DNA of 64,000 nucleotides, taken from assembly GCF_050920415.1 (NCBI RefSeq), contig NZ_CP169309.1; one strand, written 5' to 3'. The translations under genes and the position numbers were made by a program. Every line of letters begins with the position of its first letter. Position 1 is the stretch's first letter. Below, one piece after another: positions 1-18,136 of the stretch. This stretch comes from Escherichia coli. GTDB lineage: Bacteria > Pseudomonadota > Gammaproteobacteria > Enterobacterales > Enterobacteriaceae. Below the pieces are notes generated by a model. The model saw only the letters and a list, made by a program, of their open reading frames with translations. It had not been told where the DNA came from and made no database searches.

Positions 1-558
1 AAAGACCTCCCGGTGCATCTGTATGAATCCATGGGGCAAATGCAGGCAAAAATTCCGACTGAAGTGTTGATCACTGACCGGAGAGAGTATGAGCTGGCGG
101 AAGAAGGCTTTATCACACTGACCATGCGTAAAGGGTCTGATAATGCGTGCTTTTTCTCGGCCAACTCGGTGCAGAAACCCAAAAAATTCCCCAAAACCCC
201 CGAAGGCAAGGCTGCGGAGACCAACTATAAACTCGGCACCCAGCTGCCATACTTGTTTGTTATCAGTAGGTTAGCGCATTACATCAAGGTAATTCAGCGC
301 GAACAGCTTGGCTCATGGAAAGAACGCAGTGACCTGGAGCGTGAGCTGAACACCTGGATTCGCCAGTATGTTGCCGACCAGGAGAATCCGCCTGCCGAAG
401 TCCGCAGCCACCGGCCATTGCGTCAGGCAAAGATCGAGGTACTGGATGTGGATGGTGAGCCAGGCTGGTACCAGGTCGCGATATCTGTCAGACCGCATTT
501 TAAATACATGGGTGCCAGTTTCGACCTGAGCCTGGTCGGACGATTGGATAAGGAATAA
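1..558 (+). CDS. tssC: T6SS contractile sheath large subunit TssC (VipB), C-terminal part; 5' end lies upstream of the window
   Basis: Frame is open from base 1 to the stop at 558 with no true start in the window (the listed ORF begins at an internal GTG). C-terminal sequence ...GEPGWYQVAISVRPHFKYMGASFDLSLVGRL resembles TssC/VipB; tssE-tssF-tssG follow directly. Confidence 0.8.
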   Translation, partial: KDLPVHLYESMGQMQAKIPTEVLITDRREYELAEEGFITLTMRKGSDNACFFSANSVQKPKKFPKTPEGKAAETNYKLGTQLPYLFVISRLAHYIKVIQREQLGSWKERSDLERELNTWIRQYVADQENPPAEVRSHRPLRQAKIEVLDVDGEPGWYQVAISVRPHFKYMGASFDLSLVGRLDKE

Positions 559-562
559 TCCG

Positions 563-988
563 ATGCAAAGACGGGATTCAGGACCAACCGGCAGTCTTTT
601 TGAACGTATCCGTGAGGCGGCAAACCCACCTTCATACCAGAATCCAAAAGAAGCACTGATACGTTCCATCAGATGTAACCTGCGACAGGTCCTGAATACC
701 CGCGCCGGCAGCTGTTATGGCTCACCAGAGCTGGGGATCGGCGATCTGGATAATGTGGCCTCCATCTCCATGAATCTCAGGGATTCAACTGCGCAGAAAA
801 TCAGGCACTGCATTCTGCGTTATGAACCCCGTATCACTGAAGTCACTGTTATCGTCGTCGCACAGGATGAAAATGCACCGTTAGAGTTGCGTTTTCGGAT
901 TGTGGCTTGTGTTGATTTCAGCGAGGCCAGAGATGTACTTGAGTTTGACATCGTGCTGGACAGCCACCAGCAATACCGAGTGGAGTAA
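563..988 (+). CDS. tssE: T6SS baseplate protein TssE (gp25-like)
   Basis: 141 aa; N-terminal SLFERI...IRSIRCNLRQVLNTRAGS...PELGIGDL pattern typical of TssE; AAGGAA ribosome-binding site upstream; 4 bp after tssC stop. Confidence 0.88.
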   Translation: MQRRDSGPTGSLFERIREAANPPSYQNPKEALIRSIRCNLRQVLNTRAGSCYGSPELGIGDLDNVASISMNLRDSTAQKIRHCILRYEPRITEVTVIVVAQDENAPLELRFRIVACVDFSEARDVLEFDIVLDSHQQYRVE

Positions 989-993
989 ACGTC

Positions 994-16269: not shown

Positions 16270-16277
16270 GGGGGTTA

Positions 16278-17639
16278 GTGATGAGCAACAATGTACTGAC
16301 ACAAACTATCGTTACCGGCAGCGATCCGCGTACCCTGCCGGAGTTCAGCGCCATCCGCGAAGAAATTAACAAAGCTAACCACCCGTCACAGCCGGAGCTG
16401 AACTGGAAACTAGTGGAATCGCTGGCGCTGTCAATTTTTAAGGCCAACGGGGTGGATTTGCATACCGCCACCTACTATACGCTGGCACGTACACGTAATC
16501 AGGGACTGGCAGGGTTCTGTGAAGGCGCGGAACTGCTAGCTGCGATGATCACCCACGAATGGGATAAATTCTGGCCGCAAAGTGGCCCGGCGAGGACTGA
16601 GATGCTGGACTGGTTCAACACCCGCACCGGGAATATCCTGCGCCAGCAGGTTTCCTTTTCCGAAAATGATCTTTCGTTGCTCTACCGCACGGAACGGGCT
16701 TTGCAGCTTATCTGCGACAAACTCCAGCAGGTGGAACTGAAGCGCCAACCGCGCGTGGAAAATCTGCTTTATTTTGTGCAGAACACACGCAAGCGGTTTG
16801 AGCCGCAGCCCAGAAACCGTACTGCTACGGCGGCACAGACCATGGTCAGAACGCTGGTCTATGCGCCTGAAGGCACGGCTTCCGCCACAGCGGAAACCAT
16901 GCCCCCCCTACCCGACCTGCCGGAAATGCGGGTGGAGGTGCGCGGAGTGGCAGATAACGCCGACAAAGCAAAACAGGGCGACACGGTAAAAGGTTTTGTT
17001 GCCGGTGCCGCCTGTACTGCCGTTATCGCTGCTGCACTCTGGTGGTGGCAGACGTACCCGATGCAGCGGCAGCTTACAAAGGTCAGGGATACCACACAGG
17101 GAGCAGCCACCGTCTGGCTGGCATCACCGGTACTGAAAGAATATGAACAGAACCTGCAACAGCTTCTGAATACCCCACCGCTACAGCCGCTGGAAACCGG
17201 AATGCAGATGATGCGCACCGCAGACACCCTCTGGCCGGAAAGCCTGCAACAGCAGGAAGCCAGCCGGATGTGGAGCACCACGCTGAGAAACCGGGCGCAA
17301 GCCAGTCCGCAGATGAAGGGCTGGCAACAGGCGCGGCAGAATTTGCGGGATTTTGCGGATCTGATGATGAAAAAGGAGACGGAGAAACAGGGTTTCACCC
17401 TCTCGTATATCAAAACGGTGACCTGGCAGGCCGAACGGTTACTGAATCAGGAAACTCCACTGGAGTACATGCTGACGCAGTACCAGGAGACCCGCACGCA
17501 GAATCAGGACACACAAGCGCTAGCAAAAGAGATCAACCAACGGCTGGATGGGCTGTTAAGCCGCTGGCTGTTGCTGAAAAATACCGGACAGGATATGGCA
17601 ACGGACAACAGCACCGTGCCAGTCCCTCCGACCCATTGA
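16278..17639 (+). CDS. T6SS accessory ImpA_N-domain membrane protein (VasL/TagA-like)
   Basis: 453 aa; ImpA_N-like N-terminus (NWKLVESLALSIFKANGVDLHTATYYTLARTRNQGLAGF), one central transmembrane helix (GFVAGAACTAVIAAALWWW), Gln-rich C-terminal domain; sits between tssM and hcp. Start at GTG 16278 or ATG 16281. Confidence 0.75.
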   Translation: MMSNNVLTQTIVTGSDPRTLPEFSAIREEINKANHPSQPELNWKLVESLALSIFKANGVDLHTATYYTLARTRNQGLAGFCEGAELLAAMITHEWDKFWPQSGPARTEMLDWFNTRTGNILRQQVSFSENDLSLLYRTERALQLICDKLQQVELKRQPRVENLLYFVQNTRKRFEPQPRNRTATAAQTMVRTLVYAPEGTASATAETMPPLPDLPEMRVEVRGVADNADKAKQGDTVKGFVAGAACTAVIAAALWWWQTYPMQRQLTKVRDTTQGAATVWLASPVLKEYEQNLQQLLNTPPLQPLETGMQMMRTADTLWPESLQQQEASRMWSTTLRNRAQASPQMKGWQQARQNLRDFADLMMKKETEKQGFTLSYIKTVTWQAERLLNQETPLEYMLTQYQETRTQNQDTQALAKEINQRLDGLLSRWLLLKNTGQDMATDNSTVPVPPTH

Positions 17640-17656
17640 GTTTAAGGAGAATAACA

Positions 17657-18136
17657 ATGGCAAATCCCGTCTATCTGACACTGAACGGAGAACTTCAGGG
17701 GCTGATTTCATCCGGATGCTCGTCAATGCCGTCCATCGGTAACAAAGCCCAGATTGCACATCAGGATCAGATCATGGTGACGTCACTGTCCCATGGTCTG
17801 AGCCGGGCGCAGAATGTCAACCACCAGGAGCTGACCATCACGAAACCGGTGGACAAATCTTCCCCCCTGCTGGGCAAGGCCATTTCGGAGAATGAATGTC
17901 TGACCTGTGATTTTGTATTCTATCGCACCAACCGCTTTGGTGTTAATGAACCGTACTACAAGGTGAAACTGACTAACGCCCGGATCTCAAACATCGGCCT
18001 TACCGTTCCCCATACCATTAACGACAGCCCAGGACAGCCGGAAGAGTCTGTGTCATTTACCTATGAGAGTATCAACTGGGAGCACAGCGTCGCCGGAACC
18101 AGTGCGTACAGCCTTTGGAGTGAACGGATTTTCTAA
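17657..18136 (+). CDS. hcp: T6SS inner tube protein Hcp (TssD)
   Basis: The listed ORF (17270) starts inside the preceding gene; ATG at 17657 preceded by AAGGAGA gives 159 aa, typical Hcp size. Sequence MANPVYLTLNGELQG...SYESINWEH is Hcp-like. Confidence 0.92.
   Translation: MANPVYLTLNGELQGLISSGCSSMPSIGNKAQIAHQDQIMVTSLSHGLSRAQNVNHQELTITKPVDKSSPLLGKAISENECLTCDFVFYRTNRFGVNEPYYKVKLTNARISNIGLTVPHTINDSPGQPEESVSFTYESINWEHSVAGTSAYSLWSERIF

Follow-up and report, generated by a model that had tools for sequence, protein, structure and literature searches.

A type VI secretion cluster of the T6SS-2 family in the variable aspV-yafV region of Escherichia coli

Gene content of the cluster

The analyzed window, a 64,000-nucleotide stretch of Escherichia coli contig NZ_CP169309.1, begins inside a type VI secretion system (T6SS) gene cluster, which occupies positions 1-18136 as an unbroken run of plus-strand open reading frames (ORFs) and is followed by yafT, the tRNA-Asp gene aspV, and dnaQ (Table 1). 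Gene models were taken from a six-frame ORF listing, from the translations, and from the annotation by the Prokaryotic Genome Annotation Pipeline (PGAP) of NZ_CP169399.1, the sequence of E. coli MFDS1022581; this sequence is 100% identical to the first 20 kb of the window and 99.97% identical to the remainder, and it served as the source for the region upstream of the window. Families were assigned using NCBIfam profiles with curated cut-offs (equivalog cut-offs for the baseplate set) and, for the VasL-like protein, using Pfam.

An earlier note on this DNA, made without database searches, had proposed a 14-gene T6SS core operon at this place. All 14 genes were recovered there, full length except for tssC, and the profile search placed every protein in the predicted family: 13 products exceeded the curated NCBIfam cut-off for the family predicted and aligned to nearly the whole profile, and the fourteenth carries ImpA_N and VasL domains. 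The term "14-gene core operon" needs amendment, as the transcription unit opens with tssB outside the window and comprises 15 genes (PGAP annotation), of which tagH, vasI, and vasL are accessory and not core. Similarly, the hcp gene of the operon is present, but it is the divergent one of two Hcp paralogues (see below).

Table 1. Features of the T6SS cluster and of its aspV end, in window coordinates
Feature	Position	Strand	Basis
tssC, sheath large subunit, vipB-like, 3' 185 codons	1..558	+	TIGR03355, 281 bits vs cut-off 271.5, profile positions 294-473 of 473
tssE, gp25-like baseplate subunit, 141 aa, rare divergent allele	563..988	+	TIGR03357, 120 bits vs cut-off 53
tssF, baseplate, 613 aa	994..2835	+	TIGR03359, 549 bits, full-length
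tssG, baseplate, 349 aa, 37-nt overlap with tssF	2799..3848	+	TIGR03347, 351 bits
tagH, FHA-domain accessory protein, VasC/VCA0112-like, 426 aa	3865..5145	+	TIGR03354, 424 bits, full-length; PGAP start
tssJ, outer-membrane lipoprotein, 174 aa, lipobox LTGC	5142..5666	+	TIGR03352, 142 bits; lipobox from translation
tssK, baseplate, 448 aa	5669..7015	+	TIGR03353, 417 bits
tssL, DotU-type inner-membrane anchor, 257 aa	7020..7793	+	TIGR03349, 215 bits
tssH/clpV, AAA+ sheath-recycling ATPase, 910 aa	7803..10535	+	TIGR03345, 1119 bits vs cut-off 885
vasI, VCA0118-like accessory protein with signal peptide, 247 aa	10532..11275	+	TIGR03360, 272 bits
tssA, sheath-assembly cap/chaperone, 480 aa	11280..12722	+	TIGR03362, 454 bits, full-length
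tssM, IcmF-type membrane-complex subunit, 1175 aa from GTG 12742	12742..16269	+	TIGR03348, 941 bits; Walker A GPAGSGKS
vasL / TagA-class gene, ImpA_N domain + hydrophobic stretch + VasL domain, 452 aa	16281..17639	+	Pfam ImpA_N 1e-19, VasL 3.4e-25
hcp, divergent second paralogue, 159 aa	17657..18136	+	TIGR03344, 205 bits
AT-rich spacer (27% GC) between convergent hcp and yafT	18137..18477		Right edge of T6SS-specific segment; homology to K-12 stops at 18475
yafT, AT-rich lipoprotein gene, lipobox LLAGC	18478..19263	-	Translation; variable region member
aspV, tRNA-Asp(GTC); variable region begins directly at tRNA 3' end	19593..19669	-	Rfam; comparison with empty site

No operon gene contains an internal stop. 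The start of tssC lies upstream of the window, and the complete gene in NZ_CP169399.1 encodes 494 aa; the best solved (PDB) relative of the fragment is VipB of Vibrio cholerae (E 2.9e-102). The ClpV translation has both Walker A motifs (GEAGVGKS and GPSGVGKT). Hydrophobic helices are visible in the translations of TssL, TssM, and VasL, the one in TssL being C-terminal; TssL has no peptidoglycan-binding extension. The VasL-like protein matches only the N-terminal part of TssA models, below the NCBIfam cut-off, and its combination of ImpA_N and VasL domains is that seen in TssA-like proteins from the TagA class (class B) (PMC6745524). Several long antisense ORFs within the operon (356, 274, 249, 206, 184, and 171 aa) had no NCBIfam match and were taken as by-products of GC-rich coding sequence.

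The genes missing from the window were found just upstream of it. Read leftward, NZ_CP169399.1 contains tssB, an AT-rich spacer, a divergently oriented second hcp, vgrG modules, and then yafV, so that retrieval of the upstream sequence, as advised in the earlier note, yielded both tssB and the left boundary. PGAP gives the genes the same names as the profile assignments. The full TssC scores 670 bits and TssB 172 bits, two full VgrG proteins score 587-591 bits, and the upstream Hcp also passes the family cut-off; two PAAR genes are annotated, one of which was scored (154 bits). Thus all 13 core T6SS components and PAAR are encoded in the island: the sheath (TssB/TssC), the baseplate (TssE/F/G/K), the membrane complex (TssJ/L/M), TssA, ClpV, Hcp, and VgrG, which together with PAAR make up the canonical T6SS-i set. 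Taken with its gene order and position, positions 1-18136 very probably represent the structural operon of the vas-related E. coli T6SS-2, located in the aspV-yafV variable region and encoding, together with the upstream genes, a complete contractile injection machine that resembles a phage tail.

Operon structure

According to the coordinates in Table 1, the genes are separated by gaps of 4, 5, 16, 2, 4, 9, 4, 19, 11, and 17 nt or overlap by 37, 4, and 4 nt. The expectation that all junctions would be overlapping or 2-19 nt long holds if tssM starts at GTG 12742, which is preceded by an AAGGAG Shine-Dalgarno sequence and leaves a 19-nt gap to tssA. This start is ambiguous: the PGAP start at 12832, 90 nt later, gives a protein of 1145 aa and a 109-nt gap, and the TIGR03348 alignment begins at residue 32. 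Likewise, PGAP starts tssL at 7038 instead of 7020 (251 aa, 22-nt gap). Since the genes are so tightly packed, a single transcript from the AT-rich promoter region of tssB is suggested. Scans for promoter-like and terminator-like sites within the operon found them no commoner than in shuffled sequences, which does not contradict a single unit and is otherwise uninformative; no clear terminator was detected after hcp in the terminator scan. The very AT-rich spacer between the divergent hcp and tssB is 700 bp long (L001 12847-13547, NZ_CP169399.1) and, by analogy with enterohemorrhagic E. coli (EHEC), probably serves as an H-NS-silenced bidirectional promoter region (PMC5363993).

Hcp paralogues and the effector arm

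The upstream Hcp consists of 172 aa (L001 12328-12846, minus strand) and is 29% identical to the 159-aa Hcp of the operon. V. cholerae Hcp matches the upstream paralogue far better (E 1e-85) than it matches the in-window protein (E 2e-18), and on this similarity the upstream copy is the more likely main tube protein.

The effector arm (L001 1-12900 and L003 20100-35000 of NZ_CP169399.1) contains three to four vgrG modules. Annotated in these are a Tae4-family amidase, an M23 endopeptidase directed at peptidoglycan, a Tle1-like lipase (phospholipase) accompanied by a DUF4123 adaptor and three DUF3304 genes, and the two PAAR proteins; each upstream effector probably has its own immunity gene. 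No Rhs gene is annotated between yafV and tssB. The arm also contains mobile elements, namely the insertion sequence (IS) IS2, an IS21 element splitting one vgrG, a group II intron reverse transcriptase gene, and ISAs1 fragments.

Two further loci were noticed to the left of the island (L003 1-12600). The first is an apparently complete Flag-2 lateral flagellar cluster with fliE-I, fliM/N-like genes, fliP-R, flhB, flhA, and a gene for a sigma-54 interaction-domain protein; K-12 presumably keeps only Flag-2 remnants. The second is a hicAB toxin-antitoxin pair beside yafL.

Variability of the aspV locus

The variable region spans about 47 kb, from the 3' end of aspV to yafV, and includes yafT. 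In K-12 MG1655 the order is aspV-yafT-ykfM-yafU-yafF-yafV, with no T6SS genes, in agreement with the statement in the earlier note that yafT is followed there by unrelated genes; homology to MG1655 stops 3 nt past the yafT stop codon (window position 18475) and resumes at yafF/yafV. Strain AH21C082 has an empty site, in which yafV is located about 100 bp from aspV without yafT or T6SS genes, and its similarity to the window ends exactly at the aspV 3' end. Megablast of positions 1-18136 found some match in 3387 of 5426 complete E. coli genomes and a match covering at least 80% of the block in 577, so the comparison across genomes bears out the prediction that the block is variable. In some genomes the cluster is reduced to a remnant consisting of the C-terminus of tssM, vasL, and hcp; two of the matches lie on plasmids. 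The locus thus occurs in empty, K-12-type, remnant, and full states, with two deep allele classes, and these states are useful small data points on the diversification of T6SS loci. The 159-aa K-12 gene ykfM, which resembles hcp in length and orientation, was considered as an Hcp remnant and rejected, as it shows no similarity at all; neither ykfM nor yafU has a counterpart in the present strain.

The base composition is also that of a variable segment. The T6SS block, judged GC-richer by eye, has a computed GC content of 56.4%, compared with 48-52% in the flanking core, 40.6% in yafT, and 27-28% in the two spacers around yafT. The earlier interpretation as an island at a tRNA-Asp hot spot is borne out insofar as the locus at aspV is variable; of the marks of a classic integrase-mediated island, deviant GC content and presence/absence polymorphism were found. 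The remaining marks, an integrase and repeats of the tRNA 3' end, were not: no integrase is annotated in the 47 kb between yafV and aspV in NZ_CP169399.1, and no flanking direct repeats were seen in a repeat search of positions 1-20000 (which gave one chance-level 25-nt pair) or upon inspection of the junction by eye against the empty site. For this reason the description "tRNA-linked hypervariable locus", anchored at aspV, fits better than that of a classic integrative island.

The absence of an integrase and of flanking repeats in these searches also favors an alternative history, to which we give an even chance: instead of a recent tRNA-targeted island, the cluster may be a long-standing resident of the species that has passed down mostly by vertical inheritance, with homologous recombination reshuffling its alleles and repeated deletions removing it. 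At least part of the cluster is kept at the same locus by 62% of complete genomes, deeply diverged alleles (from about 69-76% to 95% nucleotide identity) occupy the same site in the same order, identity to enteroaggregative E. coli (EAEC) 042 is mosaic when computed per kb, and K-12 retains yafT and other genes of the island edge. On the other hand, the GC content is clearly above that of the core, one strain has a fully empty yafV|aspV junction, unrelated T6SS islands are documented at the aspV hot spot in Salmonella (PMC2907695), and T6SS-2 is also found on plasmids, both among our matches and in the literature (PMC10711316). A history of early acquisition, later recombination among alleles, and repeated loss explains the locus no worse than a recent insertion does, and it refines the island interpretation rather than excluding it.

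The gene yafT, located between hcp and aspV, is present in K-12, which lacks the T6SS, and missing from strain AH21C082 with its empty site. Searches with YafT gave no relative in Pfam or NCBIfam and no significant one in the PDB. The rest of the window, from dnaQ to frr and including rrnH, is ordinary core genome, and the T6SS cluster is the only accessory content, as the earlier note had stated. Across the whole window, Rfam matches were limited to rRNA, tRNA, and StyR-44 in rrnH; the StyR-44 match (31066-31174, minus strand) lies in the spacer directly upstream of the 23S rRNA gene and looks ordinary for enterobacterial rRNA operons.

Mosaic tssE/tssF allele

Identity to EAEC 042 is mostly 98-100% in tssB-tssC upstream of the window and at positions 3000-8000 (tssG to tssL), with a few 250-nt bins at 94-97%. 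It falls to 64-97% per 250 nt at about 500-3000 (tssE, tssF) and to 82-88% at 8250-9250, in the middle of clpV. At the protein level, TssE is 70.9% and TssF 92.7% identical to the EAEC 042 counterparts, compared with 99.6% for TssC, 99.5% for TagH, and 97-99.6% for most others. Only 3 of the 5426 complete E. coli genomes match segment 1-2000 with an identity of 99% or more; in the other matching genomes, about 545, identity is 89.5% or lower in nearly all cases, with one genome at 90-95%. The nearest other TssE proteins (77-80%) come from Salmonella, Citrobacter, Superficieibacter, and Huaxiibacter, while the common E. coli allele is 71% identical. Judging from these identities, tssE and the 5' part of tssF (about 500-3000) may be a rare allele introduced by recombination into an otherwise 042-type T6SS-2, a tentative reading to which we assign slightly less than an even chance. 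The O157 allele, with a TssE identity of 43.7%, is far more distant and was rejected as the donor.

If this is a true import from another lineage, a baseplate subunit and the adjoining part of a partner gene were swapped together by homologous recombination, and such a joint swap would suggest modular, possibly co-adapted, exchange of baseplate parts. The patch, the one unusual point of the cluster, is a minor curiosity and a small data point on T6SS diversification.

Proposed function

The following roles are assigned from family membership, and the account presumes that the system is expressed, assembled, and able to secrete. The TssJ-TssL-TssM complex would span the envelope, and TssE, TssF, TssG, and TssK would form the baseplate around a VgrG/PAAR spike. 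Hcp would polymerize into a tube within the TssB/TssC sheath under the TssA cap, and the TagA/VasL protein, given the role described for TagA (PMC6745524), may stop the sheath and hold its distal end at the far membrane. Contraction would then expel Hcp, VgrG, and the effectors into neighboring cells, after which ClpV would disassemble and recycle the contracted sheath. TagH, with its FHA domain, and VasI are presumably accessory factors; Hcp secretion by V. cholerae depends on the FHA gene but not on VCA0118 (PMC3166118). The intact copy suggests a potential of this food-animal isolate for contact-dependent killing of competitors or interaction with host cells, with the Tae4-family, M23, and Tle1-like proteins of the effector arm as the likely toxin set.

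Several observations weigh against a working T6SS-2 at this locus. First, there is no evidence of expression for the EAEC 042 copy (PMC2808357), and in EHEC expression in vitro is very low (PMC5363993). Second, neither annotation nor profiles revealed a VasH-type activator gene in the operon; a sigma-54 promoter motif, sought because vasH is missing, was not found upstream of tssB, and three matches elsewhere are at chance level. Third, the annotation of the cluster shows neither a kinase nor a phosphatase as a partner of TagH. Fourth, IS2 is present in the effector arm, and IS21 disrupts one of its vgrG genes. Finally, the tssE allele is unusual. Nothing among these findings contradicts the identity of the cluster as T6SS-2.

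A rival reading is that the cluster, intact on paper, is silent or a decaying relic no longer firing in this lineage. T6SS-2 copies do often decay: tssM is frameshifted in O157:H7 strain 7409, avian strains carry an amber tssM and a 2.4-kb deletion (PMC10562709), the remnants described above occur in other genomes, the effector arm here contains IS2, an IS21-split vgrG, ISAs1 fragments, and a group II intron, and no evidence of expression is reported for the 042 copy (PMC2808357). We nevertheless consider a relic improbable, as each of the 15 operon genes has an uninterrupted, full-length reading frame and a strong family score, the island still has two PAAR genes and no fewer than two complete vgrG genes, and related EHEC copies secrete Hcp (PMC5363993).

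Comparison with known systems

The cluster shows the full gene order tssB-C-E-F-G-tagH-J-K-L-H-vasI-A-M-vasL-hcp and the pairs of hcp and ImpA_N genes that are used to define T6SS-2 (PMC10711316, PMC2941450), and this architecture has been classed accordingly (PMC10711316, PMC10562709). The position, hcp-yafT-aspV-dnaQ, is also that of the known T6SS-2 loci (PMC2808357, PMC5363993). The one feature that differs is the Rhs effector gene downstream of vgrG: here the vgrG modules carry the Tae4-family, M23, and Tle1-like genes instead. The Rhs effector has been described as specific to T6SS-2 but variable, so it is not strictly defining.

The "vas-type" order recognized in the earlier note equals that of the V. 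cholerae vas cluster (VCA0107-VCA0123), which runs vipA-vipB-tssE-tssF-tssG-FHA-tssJ-tssK-tssL-clpV-(vasH)-vasI-tssA-tssM-vasL, over the genes VCA0107-VCA0121 as tabulated (PMC3166118), except that vasH (VCA0117) is absent and hcp stands at the end. V. cholerae VipB and Hcp are the best solved relatives of TssC and of the upstream Hcp, respectively. The E. coli cluster differs in having no vasH sigma-54 activator gene (as clpV and vasI overlap by 4 nt, there is no room for one between them) and no VCA0122, in being closed by hcp and not by vgrG-3, and in having hcp and vgrG divergently upstream, whereas in V. cholerae they are located in distant auxiliary clusters.

The T6SS islands of Salmonella pathogenicity islands SPI-6 and SPI-20 share the tRNA-Asp (aspV) hot spot, and SPI-20 has a comparable composition, with a GC content of 55-60%, low-GC patches, and no obvious flanking direct repeats (PMC2907695). 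The Salmonella islands belong to T6SS phylogenetic groups that differ from one another (PMC2907695), and the likeness drawn here is one of site and composition.

At the aspV locus of EHEC O157:H7 (EDL933 Z0243-Z0275; strain 7409 was examined), the genes stand in the same order, with tagH, vasI, and vasL present and hcp at the end, and the 37-kb aspV island of EDL933 secretes Hcp and is repressed by H-NS (PMC5363993). The two clusters are only about 69-76% identical in nucleotide sequence and 44-91% identical at the protein level. In addition, O157 carries an extra small gene between tssB and tssC and three more, including a DUF1311 gene, between hcp and yafT; it has an Rhs effector, and the tssM frameshift mentioned above was found in strain 7409.

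The closest known system is the Ec042-0210-0226 cluster of EAEC 042, inserted at aspV. It was reported in 2010 as the strain's third T6SS, a widely distributed one that has an FHA protein and lacks both kinase and phosphatase (PMC2808357). The 042 cluster and the present one share the yafV...aspV locus, the 15-gene tssB-hcp operon, the length of each protein, and the divergent upstream hcp, and they are collinear with 94.5% nucleotide identity over 18.1 kb. This identity also bears on whether the cluster could belong to another E. coli family, T6SS-1 (Sci-1-like) or T6SS-3 (Aai-like). The M23 peptidase, DUF4123 adaptor, and Tle1-like lipase do resemble T6SS-1 modules of ST131 (PMC10711316), and the lack of an annotated Rhs gene in the island points the same way. 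However, tagH, vasI, the paired ImpA_N and hcp genes, and the vas-type order are a T6SS-2 signature (PMC10711316, PMC2941450), and the matching 042 cluster is separate from the Sci-1 and Aai loci of that strain at pheU (PMC2808357). Gene content, gene order, and the direct identity to the aspV cluster of 042 refute membership in T6SS-1 or T6SS-3, to which we assign almost no probability.

The same system as in EAEC 042 is found in UTI89, 536, S88, APEC O1, and LF82 (PMC2808357, PMC2941450); in LF82, pathogenicity island PAI I at AspV carries two tssD and two tssA-like genes (PMC2941450). In line with the statement in the earlier note that this is a known class and not a new one (PMC2808357, PMC5363993, PMC2941450, PMC10711316), T6SS-2 at aspV has been described in EAEC, EHEC, and extraintestinal pathogenic, avian pathogenic (APEC), and adherent-invasive E. 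coli since 2009-2010. The cluster reported here is an ordinary, intact copy of this published system; it leaves the current understanding unchanged and matters little beyond annotation. It differs from the 042 copy in the mosaic divergence of tssE, tssF, and the middle of clpV, and in its effector arm, where 042 has a single truncated vgrG module and the present strain has three to four modules with IS2 and IS21.

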